From Pseudomonadota bacterium (lineage in GTDB: Bacteria > Bdellovibrionota > FAC87 > UBA2466), in contig JAYUGC010000143.1 of assembly GCA_043767805.1 (NCBI GenBank), forward strand, positions 1 through 25,703: a DNA stretch of 25,703 nucleotides, given 5' to 3'. The notes under the pieces are model-generated. The model saw nothing but the letters and a program-made list of their open reading frames with translations, was not told the DNA's origin and searched no databases. Below, in pieces: positions 1,660 through 23,218 of this stretch (position 1 is its first letter; the number at the start of each line of letters is the position of its first letter). Both the position numbers and the translations under genes were made by a program.

Positions 1660-1785
1660 AAACTCGGTACGCCTCCAGGAAAGTGGAGGCTGGGTGATTT
1701 CGTGGAGTCGGTCGATTCCCCGAGAGTAAACCTCCAGAGCTTTTTCAGAGTCTTAATTCTCGAAAGAGACAGAAAGGAACCGCAA

Positions 1786-4014
1786 ATGACTTCGTTTGAA
1801 TCCAGCGCTCCTACGGAGCGCAAATCCGCATTAACCGCTTTAGCTTCAGAGACCCGAAGACACGTGAAAAGATCACACCATCAAGAACCGGCGCCCGCTA
1901 TTTCAGAATATTTCGGAGAGCTCACCTTCGGTCTAGGCCAGATGCGCGAGCGGCTTCCCCACTCCGCTTATCAGGATCTCCTGAAAGCCCTCGATCAGGG
2001 CAAGAAGCTCAGTAAGGAGTCCGCCGACGCGATCGCTCAAGTCGTCAAGGAATGGGCGGTCACCAAAGGCGCGACTCACTTCTGCCACTGGTTTCAGCCC
2101 ATGACGGGACTGACAGCGGAAAAGCACGACTCTTTCATTTCCATTCAGCACTCCAACCACTCGGAGCTGAAAGTGGTGGAGCGTTTCTCCGGCAGCATGC
2201 TCATTCAGGGCGAGCCCGATGCCTCGAGCTTTCCGAGCGGCGGCATGCGCTCCACCTTTGAAGCGCGCGGTTACACGGCTTGGGATCCCTCGAGCCCCAT
2301 CTTTTTGATCGAAGGCCCCACGGGACGCACGCTCTGCATCCCGACAGTGTTCTTCGGCTTCCACGGGCAGGCGCTCGACTTGAAGACGCCGCTCTTGCGG
2401 TCCATCCAGGCCCTCTCTTCCACCGTCTGCGGCTTCTTGAAAGTGCTCGGCGATGTGGACGTGAAGCGGGTCGTTTCGACCTTGGGCTGCGAGCAGGAAT
2501 ACTTTCTCATCGACAAGCGTTTCGTGGCCCTTCGCCCCGACTTGCTGCTCTCGGGCCGCACGCTCCTCGGCGCTTCGTCGCCCCGGCATCAGCAGCTCGA
2601 AGATCATTACTTCGGCGCGATCCCGGAGCGCGTGAAAGCGTTCATGGAAGACGCGGAAACCGAACTCTATAAGCTCGGTATCCCGGTGAAAACCCGCCAC
2701 AACGAAGTGGCGCCGAGCCAGTTCGAGCTCGCCCCGATTTTCGAGGACGCGGGCATCGCGGCCGACCACAACACGCTTCTCATGGAGACCTTGAAACGGG
2801 TCGCCCTCCGCCACGGCCTCGTGTGCCTCACACACGAAAAACCGTTCGCGGGCATCAACGGCAACGGCAAGCATTGCAACTGGAGCATGTCGAACGACAA
2901 GGGCGAGAATCTGCTCGATCCCGGCAACACGCCCCACCAGAACTTGCGCTTTCTCGCGGTTATGGCAGTGGTGATGAAGGCGGTCAACGATCACGCGGAC
3001 GCGCTTCGAGCGGCCATTGCGTCTCCCGGAAACGATCACCGCTTGGGCGGCAACGAAGCGCCGCCCGCGATCATCTCCATCTTCCTGGGCTCGCTTCTTT
3101 CCAAGATCTGCGACGACATCGAAGCGGGTAAAGCCTCCAGCGCGACGGAATCTCAGATTCTCGAGCTCGGCGTTGGCCATATTCCGAATATTTCCCGCGA
3201 TTACACCGACCGTAACCGGACGAGCCCCTTTGCCTTTACCGGCAATAAGTTCGAGTTCCGCGCGGTGGGCGGCTCGGCGAACGTCGCGGTTCCCGTTGCC
3301 ACGCTGAACGCGGCGGTGGCGAACGTGATGATGGACGCGACGGAGCGATTGAAAGAGCTGCTCGGCAAAAAAGGCCGGGACGAAGCGGTCATGGAGCTCA
3401 TCCGGGAATACGTTAAGGCGTCCCGCGCGGTGCGCTTTGAAGGAAACAATTATTCGCAAGAGTGGCAGAACGAGGCCAAGAAGCGCGGGCTTCCCGTCTT
3501 GAACTCCACGGCGGAAGCCTTGCAGGTGCTCAACCAGCCGAAGTCGGTGGAGTTCCTGCAGCGAACGAAGGTCTTGTCGAAAGACGAGATCCATTCCCGC
3601 TTCCACGTCGGGGTCGAGCGTTACAACAAGACGCTTCTCATCGAGCATCACACGCTGGCCGAGCTGGTCACGACTCACGTCGTACCGGCGGTGGAAGCGC
3701 AGCTCCGTCAGAGCGCCTCGACCCTCGCGGCTCTGACCACGCCGTCCGCCAAGACCGCCATGCAAAAACGCATAGGCGCTCTCGAGACGACGTTCGCGGC
3801 GATTCTGAGCCAGCAAGACAACCTGAAAGCCGTGCTCGATAAAGTCGCGACTCTGACGGATGAGACGGAAGCCATGAAGTTTATCGCGAGCGACGTCACG
3901 CCCGCCGCGCTCAAAGTGCGGCACGCGGCGGACGCGGCGGAGACTCAAGTCTCCGACGATCTCTGGCCGCTGCCGAAGTACCGCGAGATGCTCTTCGCTT
4001 TCGCGCTCTCGTAA
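1786..4014 (+). CDS. glnA: Glutamine synthetase type III
   Basis: GSIII signatures: HFCHWFQPMTGLTAEKHD, GEPDASSFPSGG.RSTFEARGYTAWD, GCEQEYFL, HNEVAP.QFE, HEKPFAGINGNGKH, DRNRTSPFAFTGNKFEFRAVG, WPLPKY.EML. SD AAAGGA precedes ATG 1786. Confidence 0.95.
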   Translation: MTSFESSAPTERKSALTALASETRRHVKRSHHQEPAPAISEYFGELTFGLGQMRERLPHSAYQDLLKALDQGKKLSKESADAIAQVVKEWAVTKGATHFCHWFQPMTGLTAEKHDSFISIQHSNHSELKVVERFSGSMLIQGEPDASSFPSGGMRSTFEARGYTAWDPSSPIFLIEGPTGRTLCIPTVFFGFHGQALDLKTPLLRSIQALSSTVCGFLKVLGDVDVKRVVSTLGCEQEYFLIDKRFVALRPDLLLSGRTLLGASSPRHQQLEDHYFGAIPERVKAFMEDAETELYKLGIPVKTRHNEVAPSQFELAPIFEDAGIAADHNTLLMETLKRVALRHGLVCLTHEKPFAGINGNGKHCNWSMSNDKGENLLDPGNTPHQNLRFLAVMAVVMKAVNDHADALRAAIASPGNDHRLGGNEAPPAIISIFLGSLLSKICDDIEAGKASSATESQILELGVGHIPNISRDYTDRNRTSPFAFTGNKFEFRAVGGSANVAVPVATLNAAVANVMMDATERLKELLGKKGRDEAVMELIREYVKASRAVRFEGNNYSQEWQNEAKKRGLPVLNSTAEALQVLNQPKSVEFLQRTKVLSKDEIHSRFHVGVERYNKTLLIEHHTLAELVTTHVVPAVEAQLRQSASTLAALTTPSAKTAMQKRIGALETTFAAILSQQDNLKAVLDKVATLTDETEAMKFIASDVTPAALKVRHAADAAETQVSDDLWPLPKYREMLFAFALS

Positions 4015-4024
4015 TATTCAAGTG

Positions 4025-4059
4025 AAGCGGGGTCGGCGGAAACGCCGGCCCCGTTTTTT
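4025..4059 (+). terminator. Rho-independent terminator after glutamine synthetase
   Basis: GCGGGGTCGGCG-GAAA-CGCCGGCCCCGT followed by a T-tract. Confidence 0.9.
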
Positions 4060-4118
4060 ATGCTCCGGCAGTATTTGAACGTAATTCCAAACGCTTGACT
4101 CGGTAACTTCAAGTAGAC

Positions 4119-4146
4119 TCAAGGCAGGGTAAGGCCACTCCGATAA
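4119..4146 (+). promoter_or_regulatory. Candidate sigma28 (FliA)-like promoter
   Basis: TCAAG-N15-TCCGATAA, similar to TAAAG/TCAAG-N14-GCCGATAA but with a spacer one base longer; lies directly upstream of GTG 4154. Confidence 0.35.
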
Positions 4147-4153
4147 GTCTTTC

Positions 4154-4633
4154 GTGGTTCTCCTCATTCTAGAAAACCAGACCGGAGTGCGAAGCTCCCT
4201 GGGTCAGATGCTCAAAAAGCATCACGAAGTTTTGCTCTGTGACGACGCGGCCAGCGCACTCATCCTGCTTTCGAATCGCACCATAGACTTCGTCATTGCC
4301 GAGCCGTTAGAGAGCCTTGAGTTCATCCGCAAAGCTCAGGAAGTCTCCCCGAAAACGTCCGTGCTTTTGATGGCGCCGCACCAAGCGGCCGATCAGGCGA
4401 ACGTGCTCGAAAGACTTCTAGTTTTGGCGCCGAGCTCTCCACCCCAGACCGAGACTCCCGGTGACCTGAACGCGACTCTCGAAGCTCTCGAGTACCGCAT
4501 CCTTCAGGAAACCCTCGCGGTTCACCATTACAATCAAGTCAAAGCGGCCGAAGCGCTGGGTATTACTCGTGGCGCCCTTCAGTACAAGATGAAGAAGTAC
4601 CATCTTGCCGACGAAGACAAGAAAGCCGCCTAA
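4154..4633 (+). CDS. Degenerate receiver domain fused to a Fis-type HTH (no AAA+ domain)
   Basis: N-terminus follows the receiver beta1-alpha1-beta3 pattern (LILENQ..VRSSL..ML...HEV...DFVIAE). C-terminus LEALEYRILQETL..HHYNQVKAAEALGITRGALQYKMKKY is a classic Fis/NtrC HTH. Confidence 0.75.
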   Translation: MVLLILENQTGVRSSLGQMLKKHHEVLLCDDAASALILLSNRTIDFVIAEPLESLEFIRKAQEVSPKTSVLLMAPHQAADQANVLERLLVLAPSSPPQTETPGDLNATLEALEYRILQETLAVHHYNQVKAAEALGITRGALQYKMKKYHLADEDKKAA

Positions 4634-4692
4634 CTCTCCCTCTCGAAATTTTCACGCGACTTTGGTTTAAGCGCCGTGCTAAGCCATTCGCC

Positions 4693-5694
4693 ATGAAAAT
4701 GAAAGCTATGTTAGCCAACAAGCCCGGCCCCGCCGATGTGTTTCAGCTCACCGAAGTCCAGGTTCCCGAAATTCGTCCGGGACACCTTCTGATTCAGGTC
4801 AAAGCGACCAGCGTGAACCCCATCGACATGAAGGTCCGTTCGAAGGAATTGCCCTTTTCCCCTCCGTTTCCGGCCATTCTCCACGGAGATTTTGCGGGCA
4901 TCGTGACCGAAGTTGGACCCAACGTCTCGGGCTTCAAGACGGGCGACAAAGTGTATGGCTGCGGCGGTGGAATCAAGGGAACCGTTGGCGGCGCCTTGGC
5001 CGAGTACCTTCTCGTGGACGCATCGCTAACCTCTCCCATGCCGACGACTTTGAATTTCGCCGAAGCCGCGGCCCTTCCTTTGGTCGCCATCACTTCGTGG
5101 GAGGCGCTTCTCGACAAGCTTCAGCTCAAATCCGGCGAGACGATTCTCGTGCACGGAGGCGTGGGCGGCGTGGGCCACATCGCGGCCCAACTCGCAAAGC
5201 ACGTGGGCGCCATCGTGCACACCACGGTCTCGAGTGACGGCGACGCCGAATTGTCGAAAACTCTCGGCGCCGACTTTCCGATCAATTACAAAACGACTCA
5301 GGTCGCCGACTACGTGACGAAGTACACGAACGGCCGCGGCTTCGATAAGATCTTCGACACCGTGGGCGGACCAAACCTCGCCAACTCCTTCCGGGCCGCG
5401 CGGTTAAACGGCTCCATCGCCTGCATCGCGACCGGCGGGGATCACAATCTGAATACCATGTACGGCAAAGGCATCAACCTCATGTCCGTCTTGATGCTCA
5501 TTCCGCTCATGACGGGCGAGAACCGCGCGCACTACGGCAAGATTCTCTTCGAAACGAAGCTTCTCGTGGACGCCGGCATCATTAAGCCCCTCGTCCATCC
5601 GGAAGTCTTCGACTGGAAAGACATCGCGAAAGCCCATGCGCTCATCGAGAGCGGCAAGCAAACGGGCAAGATCGCGGTCACCGTCAGCAATTAA
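4693..5694 (+). CDS. MDR-superfamily oxidoreductase (NADPH:quinone reductase-like)
   Basis: SVNPID.K.R, ILHGDFAG.V..VG, AAALPLVAITSWEAL, HGGVGGVGH, FDTVGG, AH.LIESG..TGKI. Confidence 0.9.
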   Translation: MKMKAMLANKPGPADVFQLTEVQVPEIRPGHLLIQVKATSVNPIDMKVRSKELPFSPPFPAILHGDFAGIVTEVGPNVSGFKTGDKVYGCGGGIKGTVGGALAEYLLVDASLTSPMPTTLNFAEAAALPLVAITSWEALLDKLQLKSGETILVHGGVGGVGHIAAQLAKHVGAIVHTTVSSDGDAELSKTLGADFPINYKTTQVADYVTKYTNGRGFDKIFDTVGGPNLANSFRAARLNGSIACIATGGDHNLNTMYGKGINLMSVLMLIPLMTGENRAHYGKILFETKLLVDAGIIKPLVHPEVFDWKDIAKAHALIESGKQTGKIAVTVSN

Positions 5695-6518
5695 GCCGTA
5701 TAGCGGTTAAAGAGAATGTCCTTGAAGCGCTTCGCGAGAAGCATTTTGGACGATCGCTGCGTGGTGCGGGGAAAGAGCCGGTAGAGCCTTAGTATCAGCC
5801 GGCCATTCCACGTGGGGAAGATTTCGTCCTGCCCGCGGGAGAGCGCTTCCAAAACCTCGTCGACGACGCCCTGCGGTTTCGCGACGGCCCATCTCAGCCA
5901 ATCGGGGAAATTGAGTCCCTGCTCGGCGCCGATCATGGGCGTGTCCACGAAACCGGGCGCGACGAGAACGAGCCGCGTATTCGAGCACTCGAGCCGCAAC
6001 TCTTCGCGCACGGCGCGGGTGAAACCAACGACCGCGTGCTTGGTGGCGCTATAAAGAGAAAGATAAGGTGCCGGTAAAAATCCCGCGACGGAAGCGATGT
6101 TCACGATGGCGCCGCCGCCCATGGCTTCCATATGGCTTAGGGCGGCTTGGGTGCCGTTCAAGACGCCGTTCAAGTTCACGTCGACTATTTTCTTAATGGC
6201 GCCCGCTTCCATCTTGCGAAAGCCACCGCGAATGCCGACGCCGGCGTTATTGAAAAAGAGCTCGATGCGGCGCCGTTCCGCCAGGATGGCGTCCAAAGCT
6301 TTTTTGATTTGCGCGGGCTTGGTGACGTCGACTTCGGCCGTGTGCAGGCTCCACCCCTGAACCTTGGCCTCGGCTTCAAGCTGAGCGAGCCCTTCCGGAT
6401 TCAGATCCCAAGCCCAGACTTCGGCACCTCGTCGGCAGAGGGACTCACAAAAGAGCCGTCCGAGGCCGCCCGCGGCCCCCGTGATCACGGCGACCTTGCC
6501 ATCGAATCTTGCGGTCAT
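5691..6518 (-). CDS. SDR family oxidoreductase
   Basis: TGAAGGLG, NNAG, NIAS, YSATK and PGFVDT; Asp after beta2 (WDLN) suggests NAD(H) preference. Confidence 0.92.
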   Translation of the reverse strand: MTARFDGKVAVITGAAGGLGRLFCESLCRRGAEVWAWDLNPEGLAQLEAEAKVQGWSLHTAEVDVTKPAQIKKALDAILAERRRIELFFNNAGVGIRGGFRKMEAGAIKKIVDVNLNGVLNGTQAALSHMEAMGGGAIVNIASVAGFLPAPYLSLYSATKHAVVGFTRAVREELRLECSNTRLVLVAPGFVDTPMIGAEQGLNFPDWLRWAVAKPQGVVDEVLEALSRGQDEIFPTWNGRLILRLYRLFPRTTQRSSKMLLAKRFKDILFNRYTA

Positions 6519-16162: not shown

Positions 16163-16908
16163 GCGAGCTTCGCCTGCAAAAATGGCTTTCGAGCCTGGGC
16201 GTCGCTTCCCGGCGCGAGGCCGAGCGCCTGATGCTGGCGGGCCGAATCAGCCTCAATGGCAAAGTCTGCAAGGAGCTCGGGACGAAGGTCGCTCCCGAAA
16301 CGGACGAAGTCCGTCTCGACGGAGAATTGGTCAACGCGAAGGCGCCCACCAAAGTGTATTTCCTGCTGTGCAAACCGGACGGCGTCATTACCACGCGGAG
16401 CGATCCGGAGGGACGCCCCACGGTCTTTGGCCTTCCTAAGGTAAAGGACCTCCCAAAAGGGCTCTTCCCCGTGGGCCGACTCGACTTTCATACCGAAGGC
16501 TTGCTGCTGCTTTCCAACGACGGAGAGCTGGTGCACCGGCTGATGCATCCAAAGTGGAAGCTCACTCGGCATTACTACGTGTATGTGGAACAAAGGCTTT
16601 CGCCGACCCACGAGCGCGCCCTAAGAAGCGGTCTCACTTTAGACGATGGCCCTAGCGCACCGGTGGAGCTCGATTTTCTGGAGAAGAAAAAGGGAAAGGG
16701 CGCCTGGTACCGCATCGTCGTGCGCGAAGGCAGAAACCGCATCGTACGCCGGCTTTTCGAGGCGTGTAACGCCGACGTTAGACGCCTCATTCGTTTCGGC
16801 TTCGGAGACGTCCGCCTGGACGAGGACCTGACGCCCGGAAACGTGCGCCCGCTTCTGCGCCAGGAAATCCTGCACCTGCTCAAAGCGACCGATCTCCTGG
16901 AGCGCTAG
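16159..16908 (+). CDS. rluB: RsuA/RluB family rRNA pseudouridine synthase
   Basis: S4 domain RLQKWLS.LGVASRREAE, KP.GVITT.SDPEGR, PVGRLDFHTEGLLLL, EGRNR.VRR. ATGA overlap with the upstream gene. The exact paralog assignment is tentative. Confidence 0.88.
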   Translation: MSELRLQKWLSSLGVASRREAERLMLAGRISLNGKVCKELGTKVAPETDEVRLDGELVNAKAPTKVYFLLCKPDGVITTRSDPEGRPTVFGLPKVKDLPKGLFPVGRLDFHTEGLLLLSNDGELVHRLMHPKWKLTRHYYVYVEQRLSPTHERALRSGLTLDDGPSAPVELDFLEKKKGKGAWYRIVVREGRNRIVRRLFEACNADVRRLIRFGFGDVRLDEDLTPGNVRPLLRQEILHLLKATDLLER

Positions 16909-18710
16909 ATCGAAAGCTCGGCCGGGCGTTTCTTCTTTTTGCCGTGGGCCTTCTGCTTGAGGTTCTTGGCCTGGGCGAGACTCGTCGCATCGACCTGAGC
17001 CCCGGAGAGAAGGCGCGCGATCTCACGCGCGCTCTCGTCGTCGGAGAGCGGCACGATCTGCGACTCCGTGCGATCGCCCTTCTTGGTTTTCTTCACCAGG
17101 AAGTGGTTGTCGGCATAGACCGCGACCTGGGGCAAATGCGAGATGCAAAGCACTTGAAAGGAAGAGGCGAGCTCCTGCAGCTTTTTCCCGACGACGTCGG
17201 CAACCCGGCCGGAAATACCGCTGTCGATCTCGTCAAAGACCAAGACGCACGTTTCAGCATCGGCCACGAGCGCTTTTTTGAGCGCGAGCAGGATGCGGGA
17301 CATTTCGCCGCCGGAAGCGATGCGCGCCAGCGGCAACATGGGCTCGCCGGGATTGGCAGACAAGAGAAACCGTCCCTGCTCCGCCCCTCTATCGCCCACG
17401 GAAGTGAGGATCTCCATGGCGCTCTTCCATTCCTCGACGACGCCACCGCCAAAAACCGATAAATCGAGCGCGGGTAAGCCCCGCGTGGTGGGCACGAAAT
17501 CGACGCCGAACTCCGCGCCTTTCATAACGAGCTCCTCGAGCTCTTTCTCCACCGAGTTTTTCACCCGAAGGGCGGCCTCCGCGCGGGCCGCGGAAAGCTT
17601 TTTCGCGACTTTCTCTAAACCTAAAGCTTTTTTCCCGAGAAGCGCGACGGAGGATTCGAGGCGGCTCGCCGCGGTCTCCAGGAACTCGAGCTCACCGCCG
17701 AGGCGCGCGCTTTCTGCCAGTAACAGCTCCACCGTCGGCGTGCCGTGCTTGCGGAAAAGATTTTGATAACCGTAGATGCGCTCCTGCGCATTCTCAAGCT
17801 CCCCTTCGTCGACTTCCACGGAAGAGGCGAGCTTGGTGAGCTCGAAGCTCAAGTCTTCGAGCTGGGCCGCGGCCGACTCGGCTTGCGCGCGAAGCTCCGG
17901 AATGCGCTGAAACGGCTCGCCCATGCCTTCCAAAGCAAAAAGCGCCCGAGCGGCTTCGCGCACCGCGCGGGCCGGATTGGTATCTTCGCCTTCCAATGCG
18001 GCGAGCGCGCCTCCGATGGACTCACTCACTTTGCGGCGGCTATCGCCGTCCAAGGAAAGCGATGCCACGCGGGTGTAATCTTCCTCGCTGGGATCGAAAT
18101 CCTTCAGCGCTTTCAGGCGAAACTCTATGTAGTCGCGGTTCTTCTGCCGCTCGAGAAAACCATCCACGAGAGTACTGACCTCGCGCAAAATTTCGAGGCA
18201 GTCGCGGTTCGCGATTTCGACGGCGGTAAGCGGCGCCGGGTCTTTCAAGAAAGCGTCGAGATAGTTGAGGTGCTCGCTTTCGCGCATGAGACGTTGATTC
18301 TCGTGCTGAGCGAAAATATCGAGTAGCGACTCGCCGAGAGCCCGCAGCGTGGGCTGAGTGACGGAGATGTCATTAACCCAGCCTTGAGCGCGGCCTTTGT
18401 CGGTGAGCTGGCGGCGCAGCAAGATCTCCGTCCGACCGTCCGCGGTTTCCGCCGCGATGCCCAGATCTTCGAGAAGCGATAGCGCGGCATGTCCCTTCGG
18501 CACGCTGAACTCTCCCGAGACGGTGGCCGCCGAGAAACCTTTTCGAACGGTGTCGGGACCCGCCTTACCGCCCATCAGAAAGTTCAGCGCCTTGATGAGA
18601 ATGGATTTTCCCGCGCCAGTTTCGCCCGTAATGACGTTAAAGCCCGGGGAGAATGATATGGAGAGCGACTCTATAATCGCCATTCCCTCGATTTGCAGCC
18701 GGGTAATCAT
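16905..18710 (-). CDS. recN: DNA repair protein RecN
   Basis: Walker A TGETGAGKS, coiled coils, ASGGEMSR signature, VFDEIDSGISG, CISHLPQVA, EIARLLSG. Confidence 0.97.
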   Translation of the reverse strand: MITRLQIEGMAIIESLSISFSPGFNVITGETGAGKSILIKALNFLMGGKAGPDTVRKGFSAATVSGEFSVPKGHAALSLLEDLGIAAETADGRTEILLRRQLTDKGRAQGWVNDISVTQPTLRALGESLLDIFAQHENQRLMRESEHLNYLDAFLKDPAPLTAVEIANRDCLEILREVSTLVDGFLERQKNRDYIEFRLKALKDFDPSEEDYTRVASLSLDGDSRRKVSESIGGALAALEGEDTNPARAVREAARALFALEGMGEPFQRIPELRAQAESAAAQLEDLSFELTKLASSVEVDEGELENAQERIYGYQNLFRKHGTPTVELLLAESARLGGELEFLETAASRLESSVALLGKKALGLEKVAKKLSAARAEAALRVKNSVEKELEELVMKGAEFGVDFVPTTRGLPALDLSVFGGGVVEEWKSAMEILTSVGDRGAEQGRFLLSANPGEPMLPLARIASGGEMSRILLALKKALVADAETCVLVFDEIDSGISGRVADVVGKKLQELASSFQVLCISHLPQVAVYADNHFLVKKTKKGDRTESQIVPLSDDESAREIARLLSGAQVDATSLAQAKNLKQKAHGKKKKRPAELSI

Positions 18711-18747
18711 AAGTGCGGGTTCGGTATCCCTAGTTTCCCTTTAGGCG

Positions 18748-19206
18748 TCAATGAGCGGCGAGTAGCGCGTCGAAGAACGCGTCCGGCTCGGGCGCCGAAG
18801 GCACGGTGCCCTCTCCCAAAAACACTAAATCCTCGTCCGCATCGACCTCGCGCCGAGTGCGGCTGCAAAGGCTCGTCTGAAGCTTTCCTTGCGAATCGAT
18901 ATGAGCGTACACCAGGTAATTATCCCCCTCGCGGAACCCGTAGCCGCACATGGCGGAGCTCGACCACGTCCCCACTACTACATGCCGGGAGGTCAGCCCT
19001 TTCCAGAAACGATCCACTTTAAATTTCACCTGCACTTCACCGAAAGGCTGAGACGAGCTCGGCGCAGCGACTTTTTCGGCTTTGCCGAGAAAGATGGCGG
19101 AGGCCTGAGCCGCGGCTTGTTGAGGGGTGAAACCCGGGGCGCAACTACAGGCCCAGCTGCTTCTTGCTAACGAAAAAACGCAGAGAACGGAAAACCAAAA
19201 CCGCAT
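18748..19206 (-). CDS. Secreted single-domain TIMP-like (N-TIMP/NTR fold) protein
   Basis: SD GGGAGG before ATG 19206. Signal peptide ends SSWA, followed by CSCAP..TPQQA, FWKG, SSAMCG, G..YLVY and GKLQTSLC, which is the N-TIMP motif pattern. Confidence 0.85.
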   Translation of the reverse strand: MRFWFSVLCVFSLARSSWACSCAPGFTPQQAAAQASAIFLGKAEKVAAPSSSQPFGEVQVKFKVDRFWKGLTSRHVVVGTWSSSAMCGYGFREGDNYLVYAHIDSQGKLQTSLCSRTRREVDADEDLVFLGEGTVPSAPEPDAFFDALLAAH

Positions 19207-19234
19207 CGAACCTCCCAAATGAACTAACCTGGAA

Positions 19235-19263
19235 ACCCTACAAAGACGGGCCTCTGCGGTCAA
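19235..19263 (-). promoter_or_regulatory. Candidate sigma70 promoter for the TIMP-like gene
   Basis: TTGACC-N17-TAGGGT on the minus strand. Confidence 0.55.
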
Positions 19264-19373
19264 CGCTTACCCATCTTGACGCTCCCAACCAAAACGACAC
19301 CGGCTACCAGGAATATTTTGTTCGTTTTTTATTGTTAACGGGACTTTTAGGCTCGCAAAGATAGCGCTCCCAG

Positions 19374-19389
19374 CGGCACGGAGATTGCT
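19374..19389 (+). promoter_or_regulatory. Candidate sigma54 -24/-12 promoter for the metalloprotease
   Basis: CGGCACGGAGATTGCT versus consensus TGGCACG-N4-TTGCW, with an AT-rich tract upstream (about 19311-19338). Confidence 0.6.
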
Positions 19390-19546
19390 CTACATTCATA
19401 AGTGGTTGGGGCGCTGCGGCCAATGGGGGTTGGCGGGCGCCAAGATGGAATTGCTCACGTTGAGACTGGTTTCTCGTTCACCGTTCTACGCTCTTCGCTG
19501 ACACCCAAAAAAACTTATTAATGTAACAGCCTGGGGGTGTGCCTTG

Positions 19547-21802
19547 ATGAAGCGACGCGTGTTCTCGTCTCTGAGTCTCGTTCTGACTTCTCTTTTCCTT
19601 CTGAGCGCCTGCCAAAAGGGGGAAACGCTCACTGAAGCGAACCTCGTGACGGCGGACTCCGTGGCGGACGGCCGCAAGATTGGAAGCGCGCAAACGCCCT
19701 TCTCGGTCCTGTCGTCCAGCGACGCGAAGAAAGACGTCGCCAGCGGAAAAATCCTGCTCGCCAGCTCGGAAAAAGGCGGGCGCCTCTTGAAGGCTCTCGT
19801 CGACCCGACGCCCGCGGACCCCGCCCTGGCAACGACTCCCGCCCCGGCTCCCGCGGCTCCGGCCGTAGAGCCCGACCGGGCCAACTCTCTCGTCTTGGGA
19901 TTTCCCATCGGATTACTTGGCGAAGCGCAAGTTTTCGGAGGCGTCATCACGAAGGCCTCGAAGGGCGATAGCGAGACCATCGGCCGCTTGAAGCTCATTG
20001 ATCTAACGCCGCTTCACATCCGGCCGGTAGTTGCGACCGCGTTGGACGGAAGCTATAGCCTGGCTCTCATCGGTTGCGCGCAAGCGTGCACGGAAACTTC
20101 CGTGCCGAGCCGCCTTCAGGACATTCCCATCGTCGGCATCAATCAGGCGGACAGCACCCTCATCCTCGATCTCGCGACCTTGGGTGACGACCTGAATCTC
20201 GTACAGATGATGGATCCGAAGGGCGACTATCTGAAGATGAAGACGAAGACGTCTCAAGTCGTCCTCTTCGATTACTCGGTTTCCACTCTCGTCTTTGACG
20301 TCGAAGTGACGATGATTCCTCTCGACGCCGCCGCCCTTCAGGACGAAGTGAAGTTCACCGCCCGCTGGTACTTGCGCCTGGGCTCCGTGTTCCACTCGGA
20401 GTTCCTCTCGCGCCCGGCGGTTCCCGGTGTCGGCTTCTTCATGACCGAGCGGACGGCGACGCCGAAAATTCAGCGTCACAACCTCACTCAGCTCATCCCG
20501 GGCCAGGCTCCGGTGAAGTACTACATCAAGAACGTTCCCGTCGAGTACCAGGCGTCGTTCGCCAAAGCGTTCGATAACTGGAACGAAGTCTTGAAAAAGG
20601 AAGTGGGCACAGCCCTGCTCCGTTACGAGTTCGTCGACGCCACCGACCCGAGGGCGAAGCTCCTCATCGCGGGCGATCCTCGCTACAACATCGTCGAATG
20701 GGATCTGGACAACCTCGCCCCTTACGGCGGCTTGGGACCCTCGATCGCCAACCAGTTCACGGGTGAAATGCTCACCTCCAACATCCTGGTGCAAGGCCCG
20801 CATATCGTCGAGCTCTACACCAACTGGTTCAAGGTCGGTGAAGTGGCGCGGAACTTGAAAGCCCGCGGCATGGACGAAGAAGCTTCCACGTTACTGCGCG
20901 ACTACGCTCGCTCGGTGGATAAGGACATGAAGCGTCTCGCGTCCGCCGGGAAAGTCGAGATGTCTCTCGGTAACTTGAAGTTGCGGGTACCATCGCAGAT
21001 GCCTGAGCTCGAGGATCCGCTCTTCGCGCGGGACGACTTCGAGCTCCTTCCGCCGAACATGAAGTACGAAGAGTACATGTCCGGCTACTGGGCGGAGCTC
21101 GTGGGCCATGAGATGGGCCACAACTTGGGCCTTCGTCATAACTTCCGTGGCAACTTGAGCGCCGAGGCCGTGAAGACTCCGGGCAAAGTCTCGGGCAGCA
21201 TCATGGAGTACTTGGGCCGCGGCTTCCGTTACCTGGATACCGTTGGACCCTACGACGTCATGGCGCTCGCCTACGGCTACCACGGCAAGACGCCGACGGT
21301 TCTCACCACGTTCTGCACCGACGAGGATGTCGCGGATCTGAAGACGAAGGGCAATTCTCCGGAATGCTCTCGGGACGATGCCACGCCGGATCCGTTCGGC
21401 TTCTTCGAATCGCGTCTCGCCCGGGCGGTGAGCCTCCTCACCAATCCCGGCAAGACGGTCGCTTCCACGTGGACGCTGGCCGATCTCGAAGGACCGCTCG
21501 GCATCTCGGTGGGCGGCATGGGACTCTATGCCGCGAGTGCCTCGGTCACCGGAGCGAAGTGGACCAATTTCTTCAACGGGGGCGATAGACCCTGGTTCAC
21601 CTCGGGCGTGAAGCCTTACGTGATCAAGAAGATTAAGGCTCAGCTCTGCGACGCGAAACTCGGCGACGCGATCGCCGAGAAGGCGTCGCTCGAGGACAGA
21701 AGCAAGACGGCGTCTCTCGTCGGCGCGCTGCGCGCAAAGGTCGCCTCGCTCTTGACCGGCGCCGGAATTACCGCCGCCGACCTGACCTGCGTCTCTCGAT
21801 AA
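19547..21802 (+). CDS. Lipoprotein zinc metalloprotease, metzincin clan (EcxA/matrixin-like)
   Basis: Lipobox LSAC; Pro/Ala linker; VKYYI..VP......AF..WN; HEMGHNLGLRH (HExxHxxGxxH); Met-turn SIMEY; GPYD.MAL.YGY. Confidence 0.92.
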   Translation: MKRRVFSSLSLVLTSLFLLSACQKGETLTEANLVTADSVADGRKIGSAQTPFSVLSSSDAKKDVASGKILLASSEKGGRLLKALVDPTPADPALATTPAPAPAAPAVEPDRANSLVLGFPIGLLGEAQVFGGVITKASKGDSETIGRLKLIDLTPLHIRPVVATALDGSYSLALIGCAQACTETSVPSRLQDIPIVGINQADSTLILDLATLGDDLNLVQMMDPKGDYLKMKTKTSQVVLFDYSVSTLVFDVEVTMIPLDAAALQDEVKFTARWYLRLGSVFHSEFLSRPAVPGVGFFMTERTATPKIQRHNLTQLIPGQAPVKYYIKNVPVEYQASFAKAFDNWNEVLKKEVGTALLRYEFVDATDPRAKLLIAGDPRYNIVEWDLDNLAPYGGLGPSIANQFTGEMLTSNILVQGPHIVELYTNWFKVGEVARNLKARGMDEEASTLLRDYARSVDKDMKRLASAGKVEMSLGNLKLRVPSQMPELEDPLFARDDFELLPPNMKYEEYMSGYWAELVGHEMGHNLGLRHNFRGNLSAEAVKTPGKVSGSIMEYLGRGFRYLDTVGPYDVMALAYGYHGKTPTVLTTFCTDEDVADLKTKGNSPECSRDDATPDPFGFFESRLARAVSLLTNPGKTVASTWTLADLEGPLGISVGGMGLYAASASVTGAKWTNFFNGGDRPWFTSGVKPYVIKKIKAQLCDAKLGDAIAEKASLEDRSKTASLVGALRAKVASLLTGAGITAADLTCVSR

Positions 21803-21815
21803 GTTCCTAATCCTT

Positions 21816-21851
21816 AAAGAGCCCGCTCTCCGAACGGGGAGCGGGCTTTTT
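21816..21851. terminator. Rho-independent terminator, probably bidirectional
   Basis: AAAG-AGCCCGCTCTCC-GAAC-GGGGAGCGGGCT-TTTT between convergent genes. Confidence 0.88.
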
Positions 21852-21889
21852 CACGTCCGCAAGGGAGAGATCTAATGGATTACCTCGTA

Positions 21890-21921
21890 CCAGCATCCAG
21901 CATCCAGCATCCAGCAACCAG
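21890..21921. repeat. Heptanucleotide tandem repeat (CCAGCAT)3 CCAGCAA CCAG
   Basis: Read directly from the intergenic sequence. Confidence 0.9.
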
Positions 21922-21955
21922 TGACCGGGCCGGATCGAACGCGCGGTAGCGCGGC

Positions 21956-23218
21956 TTAGCGAGAGCGGACTTTTTTGGGAGCGCGGTAGTAGCCTTCGAT
22001 AAAGTGGCGGGCGATGCGCGACGCCTTGATCCGCCATTTCTCGACATTTACCGTCAGCGCCGCGACGGCGATGCGGCTACCATCGGCAAGCGCATAACCC
22101 ACGAACCAGTCGGTGTTGCCAACGGGATCCAAGCCGCGCAGAGAACCGGTCTTGCCGCCAATCTCGAACACATCGGGCCGGATGTAATGGCGAATGCCCG
22201 CAAACGATCCGACCGCCGTTCCGGCGGTGACCGTTTCGCGCATCAGCTTTCTCAGCTCGTACGCGGTCTCGGGCCGCATCACGCGGGAGGCGACCTTCGG
22301 CTTTGGCTCATAGAGCACGTCGCCATCGGAGTTCGCCGCCGGAGAGCCGTCCCATTTCATCAAGCCATCGACGACATGAGGCTCGACGATGACGCCATCG
22401 TTGGCGACAGCCGAAGCGATGAGGGCCGCCTGCAAAGGGCTCATGCGCACGCCGCGGTTATAGCCCGACGCCACTTCCGCGATGGAGAACGCGTCCGGGC
22501 CCGCGAGTTCGAACGCGCCGGCCTGCACGGGCAAGTCGCCGGGAATCTCTCTATTGAATAGGAAACGATCCGCGTACTCTTCCATGCCGAGCTCGCCCAC
22601 GTGCCGGATGCCGACCATGCCGAAAACGGTGTTGATGGATTTCGCGAAGGCCTTCTTGATGCTGACGATGCGGGTCCAGCGGTTTTTCGAGAAGCTCGTC
22701 ACATTCCGACGATAAAGCGTGTGATCGGAGCCGTTGAACTCGATGTTGCTATCGGAGTTGAGCTTTCCCGAATCGAGCGCCGCGGTGGCGGTCACGATCT
22801 TGAAAATGGAAGCGGAGGGGAAGGAAGCGCGCAGCGCGAGGTTTCCCAGATTCGAGCTCTCGTCCTTGATGTAGCTGACGAGCGAGAGCACGCGGCCGGT
22901 CTCCGGATCGAGCGCGACGAAAGCGCCGTAGTCGGGCTTATACGCCTCGAAGAGCTTTTCCATGCGCTCTTGCATCTCGTTGTTCAGCGTATATTTCGCG
23001 CGCGCGAGATAACTCACGTCCTCGCCGGCGAAACGAAGCTCGTCGGGAAAAACGCCTTCCGCGAGCGGCTCACGCAACGCTTGCGAAATCAGCGTCTGCA
23101 ACTTCGGCGTGTTGCCCGAAACTTGCTGAATCACGGGACGAGAGTGACCGAGCACCCAAATGATGGCCATCGACCCCAGTACCGATACCAAGACTGTGAA
23201 CCAAGAATCTTTCTTCAC
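21956..23218 (-). CDS. Penicillin-binding protein, transpeptidase domain with TM anchor
   Basis: N-terminal TM; GAFVALDPETGRVL; ASIFK (SxxK); KSIN (SxN); MSPLQAA; GGKTGS; WFVGY. GTG start. Confidence 0.9.
   Translation of the reverse strand: MKKDSWFTVLVSVLGSMAIIWVLGHSRPVIQQVSGNTPKLQTLISQALREPLAEGVFPDELRFAGEDVSYLARAKYTLNNEMQERMEKLFEAYKPDYGAFVALDPETGRVLSLVSYIKDESSNLGNLALRASFPSASIFKIVTATAALDSGKLNSDSNIEFNGSDHTLYRRNVTSFSKNRWTRIVSIKKAFAKSINTVFGMVGIRHVGELGMEEYADRFLFNREIPGDLPVQAGAFELAGPDAFSIAEVASGYNRGVRMSPLQAALIASAVANDGVIVEPHVVDGLMKWDGSPAANSDGDVLYEPKPKVASRVMRPETAYELRKLMRETVTAGTAVGSFAGIRHYIRPDVFEIGGKTGSLRGLDPVGNTDWFVGYALADGSRIAVAALTVNVEKWRIKASRIARHFIEGYYRAPKKVRSR

Follow-up and report, generated by a model that had tools for sequence, protein, structure and literature searches.

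Does a bacterial protein that resembles the TIMPs (tissue inhibitors of metalloproteinases), and whose gene stands head-to-head with that of a metzincin-type zinc protease, act as an inhibitor, and if so, is it dedicated to its neighbor? The question is raised by a divergent gene pair at positions 18,748 to 21,802 of the window analyzed here, the whole 25,703-nt stretch of contig JAYUGC010000143.1 (assembly GCA_043767805.1 of a predatory-type bacterium, designated genome G000 below). A first-pass annotation had read the pair as a protease and its immunity factor. We find that the small protein is genuinely homologous, in both sequence and fold, to the inhibitory domain at the N-terminus of animal TIMPs, and that its neighbor is a metzincin lipoprotein of the DUF4953 family. 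Both genes are real and specify envelope proteins; on our reading each has its own regulation, and the two were not inherited together as a module. The account we favor, with somewhat more confidence than doubt, is that the small protein is a metalloprotease inhibitor which became the neighbor of the protease by insertion.

Homology of the TIMP-like protein to animal TIMPs

The TIMP-like gene is made up of the following parts.

18748..19206, minus strand: TIMP-like gene, 152-aa precursor (open reading frame [ORF] list, Pfam PF00965, family profile, AlphaFold2 model)
18748-18750, minus strand: stop codon of the TIMP-like gene (ORF list)
18751..19149, minus strand: mature TIMP-like domain, 133 aa, a β-barrel of the oligonucleotide-binding (OB) type plus helices (sequence, model)
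19150..19206, minus strand: predicted signal peptide, 19 aa, ending S-W-A (sequence and A-x-A rule)
19211..19216, minus strand: putative ribosome-binding site GGGAGG, 4 nt 5′ of the ATG (read from the sequence)

The longest frame, 18748..19263(−), encodes 171 aa. The ATG at 19206 was taken as the likely start because it is preceded by GGGAGG and because the start in the sister genome G004 is equivalent; in this congener, a metagenome-assembled genome (MAG) labelled Pseudobdellovibrionaceae, AAGGAGG lies ahead of the GTG start of the TIMP-like gene. The 152-aa precursor begins MRFWFSVLCVFSLARSSWA, and CSC follows the predicted cut. By the A-x-A rule, signal peptidase I is predicted to cleave after Ala19, giving a mature end of Cys1-Ser2-Cys3. 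The longest frame matches the Pfam TIMP family PF00965 over its residues 38-134 with 30.9 bits against a cut-off of 23.1 (E 2.9e-7), and together with the SWA/CSC junction this upholds the initial description of a secreted TIMP-like product. The match spans profile positions 2-108 of 183 only, and the 133-aa mature protein has no C-terminal TIMP domain. A scan of NCBIfam assigned the protein to no family.

Close relatives were few at first sight, as a word-indexed search returned only 4, at 52-89% identity. A family profile built from these five sequences (query and 4 relatives) and run against 1.84 billion cluster representatives matched 14,771 of them at E≤1e-3, and 5,545 at E≤1e-10. The source names of these entries read 'hypothetical protein', and Chloroflexota and archaeal Nitrosopumilaceae are included. 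In three Chloroflexota members (P0007, P0012 and P0038; 1030-1213 aa) a TIMP-like stretch occurs 2-3 times per protein, and Pfam recognizes no other domain in them. A C-x-C motif occurs within the first 80 residues of 157 of 159 family members examined, reading CSC in 135 of these, and in 40 sequences inspected it is mostly preceded by an A-x-A signal-peptidase-I site. Seven positions, C1, C3, G51, C68, Y81, C95 and D107, are invariant in a 111-member alignment, and they include all four cysteines of the mature protein (C1, C3, C68 and C95).

When the 111-member profile was compared with the sequences in the PDB, 15 matches were obtained at E≤6.3e-4 and every one was TIMP-1, -2 or -3; the sole other row was an unrelated protease at E 0.52. 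The best match, N-TIMP-2 (E 2.8e-10), begins exactly at Cys1. C1, C3 and C95 align to TIMP-2 Cys1, Cys3 and the cysteine of its LC dipeptide, the last through a profile segment reading slC, and the SSAxCG segment of the profile (ssasCG) aligns to the cysteine of TIMP-2 SSAVCG. Two disulfides pairing Cys1 and Cys3 with partners are inferred from this alignment. The AlphaFold2 model has a mean pLDDT of 92.8, and in a Foldseek search of the PDB it matched TIMP chains at ranks 1-17 (E 4.7e-7 to 3.3e-5), the highest target-normalised TM-score being 0.69; the protein is thus predicted to form a five-stranded OB-type barrel of TIMP/NTR topology. In animal TIMPs, the amino and carbonyl groups of Cys1 bind the catalytic zinc and residue 2 enters the S1′ pocket. 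Because C-x-C is nearly universal at the predicted mature N-terminus, the ridge is conserved, and the similarity is specific to TIMPs, we suggest that the family uses the TIMP mechanism, and the window protein is probably a metalloprotease inhibitor that acts as a Cys1 wedge.

Several observations weigh against inhibition. The column to which TIMP-2 Cys13 aligns is not a cysteine, so that the third N-domain disulfide of vertebrate TIMPs, which we take to be formed by Cys13 and its partner in their numbering, is absent, and the mature protein lacks the entire C-terminal domain, with its three further disulfides. Our literature search found no paper testing inhibition or binding by any bacterial PF00965-type protein. 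And the matches just under the TIMPs in the Foldseek ranking are agrin NtA and the netrin-like (NTR) domain of PCOLCE, members of a group of NTR/OB-fold relatives that are not known to inhibit proteases by the TIMP mechanism.

These fold relatives raise the alternative that the protein is a non-inhibitory binding or adhesion head, comparable to the modules of agrin, netrins and PCOLCE, whose proximity to a protease is coincidental. Some family architectures would suit such a role. Many Acidobacteriota forms, 430-510 aa long, consist of a TIMP-like head on CarboxypepD_reg or prealbumin-like stalks (L044, L045, L049, L063 and L069), an adhesin-like layout seen in all five long forms scanned; no protease domain is fused to the TIMP-like part in the 26 longer family members scanned, and the genes around family members are mostly housekeeping genes. 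A binding head does not readily account for a C-x-C that follows a signal-peptide site in 157 of 159 members, or for significant PDB matches that are TIMPs specifically in 15 of 15 cases. Conservation of the SSAxCG ridge is likewise hard to explain without a role for a free N-terminal cysteine, the hallmark of the TIMP mechanism and, to our knowledge, not a feature of other NTR modules. We regard a non-inhibitory binding role as unlikely.

For the inhibitor that we prefer, the most likely course of events would be the following. The precursor would be exported by its Sec signal peptide, cut after Ala19, and folded in the periplasm as a two-disulfide OB barrel. It would keep the inhibitory edge of TIMPs, namely Cys1 with its free N-terminus, Ser2, Cys3 and, linked to them through a disulfide, the SSAxCG segment. 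This edge would wedge into the cleft of a zinc metalloprotease, where Cys1 would chelate the zinc, as it does in TIMPs.

The neighboring metzincin and its promoter

The divergent gene, separated from the TIMP-like gene by 340 bp between the two ATGs just as the first-pass annotation had stated, has the following features.

19374..19389, plus strand: sigma-54-type −24/−12 element CGGCACGgagaTTGCT, some 158 nt 5′ of the ATG of the metzincin gene
19547..21802, plus strand: metzincin lipoprotein, 751 aa, DUF4953 family (ORF list, Pfam, AlphaFold2 model); the frame is 19544..21802(+), with the ATG at 19547 and the stop at 21802
19610-19612, plus strand: Cys22 of the lipobox LLSAC (sequence)
20426..21307, plus strand: metzincin catalytic domain, about residues 294-587 (VIA-align structure comparison)
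21107..21139, plus strand: zinc motif HEMGHNLGLRH, with H521, E522, H525, G528 and H531 (alignment of 80 orthologs)
21197..21211, plus strand: Met-turn SIMEY, with M553 (alignment of 80 orthologs)

The lipoprotein with a metzincin zinc motif and Met-turn that had been described at this position is confirmed by the lipobox and by a match to Pfam DUF4953 'Met-zincin' (PF16313; 32.5 bits, cut-off 24.2). Its comparison to matrix metalloproteinases (MMPs) did not hold. Pfam gave no Peptidase_M10 match, and Reprolysin_3, _4 and _5 scored 14.5-16.3 bits, under their cut-offs of 22-27. Because DUF4953 alone passes a Pfam cut-off, the protease is neither a matrixin/MMP (M10A) nor an ADAM/reprolysin (M12B), the classical targets of TIMPs. 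In NCBIfam it had a sub-threshold match only. A search with residues 280-751 identified 464 homologs at E≤1e-5; PF16313 is annotated in all 120 homologs listed, which, where they are named, are called 'zinc-dependent metalloprotease' (in Bdellovibrio or Bacteriovoracaceae MAGs) or 'hypothetical protein'. H521, E522, H525, G528, H531, M553 and Y555 are invariant in the alignment of 80 orthologs, and lipobox Cys22 is nearly so. A literature search for 'DUF4953' returned nothing.

The AlphaFold2 model of the protease has a pLDDT of 90.6 and a pTM of 0.90. A whole-protein Foldseek search gave no match at E≤0.001. In a wide VIA-align comparison, the top rows (Z 8.0-10.3), which align over model residues ~292-587, were all metzincin catalytic domains, namely EcxA, proMMP-9, alkaline protease, archaemetzincin, snapalysin, MMP-20, MMP-2, astacin and MMP-12. 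Given a signal peptide on one and a lipobox on the other, both products should be exported, as had been proposed. A complex prediction for the mature TIMP-like protein and protease residues 111-751, run with alignments given and without controls, returned a score of 0.01 and a mark of 0.32, values that speak neither for nor against binding. The genome has 15 ORFs with a metzincin motif among 3,983, and as a physiological target the neighbor would thus be one candidate among about 15 metzincin-motif proteins; foreign proteases, of prey or competitors, would be possible as well.

The two genes also differ in what lies upstream of them. CGGCACGgagaTTGCT departs from TGGCACG-N4-TTGCW at 1 position and ranks first among the window's 7 matches at ≤2 mismatches. 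It sits in a block conserved with G004, and GGCAY-N5-YTGC is found upstream of the protease orthologs in 8 of 10 genomes (the window, L007-L011, L017 and L018; it is absent in L012 and L013), as compared with 0.018 per 500-nt region expected from the genome-wide frequency. rpoN is present in G000, on C10. A sigma-54-type promoter had been proposed for the protease, and judged by this conservation the promoter is real and serves the protease gene; the whole ortholog group appears to depend on sigma-54. We consider the 751-aa lipoprotein, conserved across the family, to be transcribed from this putative promoter. Elsewhere in the window, 4154-4633(+), just downstream of a type III glutamine synthetase gene (1702-4014), encodes a 159-aa protein with a Fis-type HTH_8 domain and no sigma-54 AAA+ domain, which may be a truncated NtrC-like regulator.

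The sigma-70 promoter proposed for the TIMP-like gene was not recovered. A consensus scan of 18600-22100 found 0 sites, and the best candidate seen by eye, TTGACC-17-TAGGGT, has only 3 of 6 positions in its −10 and is not conserved in G004. Further elements in the intergenic DNA were examined. A GTTAACA(A/T) motif at about 19331-19340(+) recurs in the recN-protease intergenic DNA of G004, G018 (L010) and G003 (L012), and is common to intergenic regions with and without a TIMP-like gene; its role may be that of an operator or enhancer site. LexA-box patterns sought in the intergenic region on the recN side gave no convincing match.

Gene order in the family and at other TIMP-like loci

Two further genes flank the pair.

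16905..18710, minus strand: recN (Pfam SMC_N and AAA_23; 81% identical to the G004 protein)
21956-23218, minus strand: penicillin-binding protein (PBP) transpeptidase gene, flanking the metzincin gene (Pfam)

A gap of 37 nt separates the TIMP-like stop from recN, which follows downstream in the same orientation, and the only terminator-like site in 18600-22100 is a plus-strand one within the metzincin gene; joint transcription of the TIMP-like gene and recN is therefore likely. The shared operon that would mark a module is not what is seen, as the pair occupies opposite strands and the TIMP-like gene lies just upstream of recN on the minus strand.

We surveyed 34 genomes of the family with the TIMP-like profile and with protease searches. 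The TIMP-like gene was found in 4, at 6 places. Protease matches occur in 27 genomes at E≤1e-5, and an ortholog in 19 at E≤6.3e-75 (46-68% identity; 16 of the 19 spanning >600 residues). Adjacency of the two is confined to G000 and G004, members of one genus; of 3 loci obtained from a scan of genome contigs, one, L004, is the same contig as G004:C65 (L007) and is no independent case. Divergent recN and protease genes are immediate neighbors in genomes G018 (genus g9), at a distance of ~328 bp, and G003 (genus g3), at ~216 bp, and no other gene intervenes; in six further orthologous loci the protease has other neighbors. An all-frame profile search of these eight loci, which represent 6 other genera, revealed no TIMP-like ORF even at E≤1. 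The TIMP-like gene looks like an insertion upstream of recN because recN and the protease gene are directly divergent in two other genera. The simplest history, by parsimony, is that an ancestor of the genus acquired the gene at a point separating recN from its upstream region. On this scenario it would have landed between recN and the promoter region of recN, beside the protease gene, and would now probably be co-transcribed with recN.

The family profile detects exactly 2 TIMP-like copies in G000; a PF00965 search of this genome yielded none at a genome-scaled E≤0.01, and none in control genomes either. The second copy (G000:C146:47681-48100; L016:6676-7476) is a 266-aa paralog encoded between ppk and a glutamine synthetase gene. 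Its C-terminal extension matches no known family, and its ortholog in G004 (C100) is again beside ppk. A third genome, G009, has its copy adjoining ATP-synthase genes. In the fourth, G019, a TIMP-like gene at 6406-6831 of L014 (G019:C8; PF00965, 30.1 bits) is divergent from the gene for a 721-aa clostripain-family (C11) peptidase at 4107-6272. The two stand head-to-head, as the pair in the window does, but the enzyme is a cysteine peptidase and belongs to another catalytic class. A 256-aa TIMP-like protein (P0006) and a protease 69% identical to the one studied here (P0161), both from a JGI contig of 4,526 bp, are an unverified possible third pair.

These data bear directly on the protease/immunity module first proposed, in which the TIMP-like protein would be the cognate periplasmic inhibitor, shielding the envelope of the producing cell up to the time when the protease is deployed under sigma-54 control. 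Its appeal lies in two exported products encoded divergently 340 bp apart, in a chance of adjacency to a metzincin-motif gene of only ~0.75% per gene, and in published precedents for a bacterial metzincin with an inhibitor encoded next to it (Mtz-Tim of Listeria, PMC8235301; KLIKK peptidases and their potempins, PMC9890683). The arrangement is also kept in G004 despite only 53% identity between the TIMP-like proteins. Over the same two genomes the protease is 67% identical, the PBP 78%, RecN 81%, a response regulator 88% and a glycosyltransferase 43%, the last being the only compared neighbor less conserved than the TIMP-like protein.

Set against this, the adjacency is found in one genus (an ortholog of the protease in 19 of 34 genomes, the pair in 2), and the eight orthologous loci in other genera do without a TIMP-like ORF. 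The precedents are co-transcribed, whereas the present genes occupy opposite strands and have promoters of different types, and the 37-nt spacing to recN points to hitch-hiking on the recN transcript. Three of the 4 other TIMP-like genes in the family are beside unrelated genes (ppk/glutamine synthetase in G000, ppk in G004, ATP synthase in G009), and the fourth beside the C11 cysteine peptidase. In a six-frame scan of 65 other TIMP-like loci (the window and G004 excluded), a metzincin motif was found at 1, L038. The neighborhood survey thus does not support a conserved module, and a dedicated pair seems improbable to us. More doubtful still is a combined version, in which prokaryotic PF00965 proteins are genuine Cys1-wedge inhibitors and one copy was captured here as the dedicated guard of a sigma-54-controlled DUF4953 protease.

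Outside the family, the TIMP-like family was detected in 21 of 401 Bdellovibrionota genomes, at 26 places. At 20 further loci we scanned 150 of 151 neighboring ORFs of ≥90 aa within 3.5 kb (one 93-aa ORF was left out), and the neighbors were mostly housekeeping genes. A few proteases were encountered. At L038 (G377:C31; 2338-3153 and 3177-3587), a matrixin gene (Peptidase_M10, 44.4 bits, HELGHVIGLDH) is directly 3′ of a divergent TIMP-like ORF that has no N-terminal C-x-C, and this pair may be of the Mtz-Tim type. L031 (G380:C3; 360-5383 and 5954-6367) contains five tandem secreted HExxH paralogs of 289-314 aa near a TIMP-like gene, from which one FHA-domain gene separates them. The paralogs are weakly M48-like (one reaches 22.5 bits with Peptidase_M48; the best PDB match is an HtpX homolog, E 0.0023), and their predicted mature N-termini likewise start with Cys. 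An M14 carboxypeptidase gene lies 1.1 kb from the TIMP-like gene at L033, and L021 has a marginal M48 match nearby.

In Acidobacteriota, the family is present in 27 of 201 genomes, at 39 places, and the genomes of L005 and L006 (G401 and G402) have 4 and 8 copies. We examined 38 loci, recovered the TIMP-like ORF in 34, and found 0 metzincin motifs and 2 HExxH motifs among 262 neighboring ORFs of ≥100 aa within 4 kb. One of these two HExxH motifs is at L043 (G593:C15), where a Peptidase_M60 gene (enhancin-like, 151.7 bits) at 3706-5031 ends 5 bp before a TIMP-like gene at 5036-5476 on the same strand, an arrangement suggestive of an operon that joins the latter to a zinc peptidase outside the metzincins. 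Metagenome contigs retrieved through a narrow alignment contributed 2 distant loci with nothing relevant adjacent. In total, a zinc peptidase is the immediate neighbor at ~3 of 58 independent loci (DUF4953 here, the matrixin at L038, M60 at L043) against ~1-2 expected, a difference that is not significant, and we claim no enrichment of zinc peptidases beside TIMP-like genes.

The insertion that we favor has to be set against three considerations. Its direction, insertion and not loss, rests on parsimony over 34 genomes with no rooted tree. The probability of adjacency to a metzincin-motif gene by chance is ~0.75% per gene in G000 (2 × 15/3983), a figure to be read with the fact that the window was itself chosen because of the adjacency, and insertion exactly beside a metzincin gene could have been selected. 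Finally, the sporadic adjacency of peptidases of several types (M60 at L043, matrixin at L038, M48-like at L031 and C11 at L014) hints at functional links.

Known systems and implications

The closest relatives by sequence are the animal TIMPs (PF00965, MEROPS I35), TIMP-2 above all. The window protein shares with them a signal peptide followed by Cys-Ser-Cys, Cys1 and Cys3 with their partners, the SSAxCG ridge, and an OB barrel followed by helices; it differs in being prokaryotic, a single 133-aa domain with no C-terminal domain, and in having two predicted disulfides only. TIMPs are said to occur in 'various Eubacteria' in one article (PMC3516229, citing Brew & Nagase 2010). It had been stated at the outset that no characterized cognate target of bacterial TIMP-like domains was known. 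In our literature search that held for PF00965-type proteins, none of which was found to have been tested, and it needs qualification in view of a published metzincin/TIMP-like pair in Listeria monocytogenes, Mtz-Tim (Boichis et al. 2021, PMC8235301).

As described in that article, Tim, itself a lipoprotein, undergoes cleavage by the adjacent metzincin, which it is not shown to inhibit; the authors discuss regulation of the metzincin by its partner, and the pair is consistently linked across Gram-positive bacteria. Mtz-Tim resembles the present locus in that a bacterial metzincin gene lies beside a gene for an exported TIMP-like protein. In contrast, Tim is described there as TIMP-like by predicted structure only, whereas the window protein is a PF00965 sequence homolog; tim is immediately downstream of the metzincin gene with no promoter of its own, and here the linkage is confined to one genus.

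The functional model behind the first-pass annotation is closer to the potempins of Tannerella forsythia. According to PMC9890683, these are OB-fold inhibitors of the adjacent secreted (metallo)peptidases of the KLIKK group, for example PotA of karilysin, and they protect the outer membrane. They too are small OB-fold β-barrel proteins of the envelope. Unlike the window protein, they are described as lipoproteins whose genes lie immediately 5′ of those for their peptidases and share a transcript with these, are not sequence homologs of TIMPs, and inhibit through loops, by a 'bilobal' or standard mechanism, not through an N-terminal Cys. For the alkaline protease AprA of Pseudomonas aeruginosa, the discussion section of PMC8235301 describes an inhibitor whose N-terminus engages the protease in a TIMP-like manner. 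This case shares with ours a Gram-negative metzincin with an endogenous periplasmic inhibitor. The fold of that inhibitor is unrelated, however, and the protease is a serralysin, not a DUF4953 protein. The gene for the AprA inhibitor belongs to the operon for secretion of the protease.

Animal TIMPs have counterparts in thousands of bacterial and archaeal proteins, which match them in sequence, in fold and in the inhibitory edge at the N-terminus. The present locus is a member of this database-annotated family and is not evidence of a conserved bacterial TIMP-MMP system; being among the few in which a TIMP-like protein is encoded beside a metzincin, it lends itself reasonably well to a first test of the family. 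A separate regulatory finding is that the DUF4953 lipoprotein protease appears to be under conserved sigma-54 control throughout this bacterial family. Should the neighbor not be inhibited, the ~14 remaining metzincin-motif proteins encoded in G000, or proteases of foreign origin, would become the candidates to consider. If the dedicated-guard reading were true, a bacterial protein with sequence homology to TIMPs would for the first time have a cognate target, and TIMP-metzincin inhibition would predate animals. If inhibition as such is true, the family would gain a function, and the origin of TIMP-type inhibition would move back to the prokaryotes.

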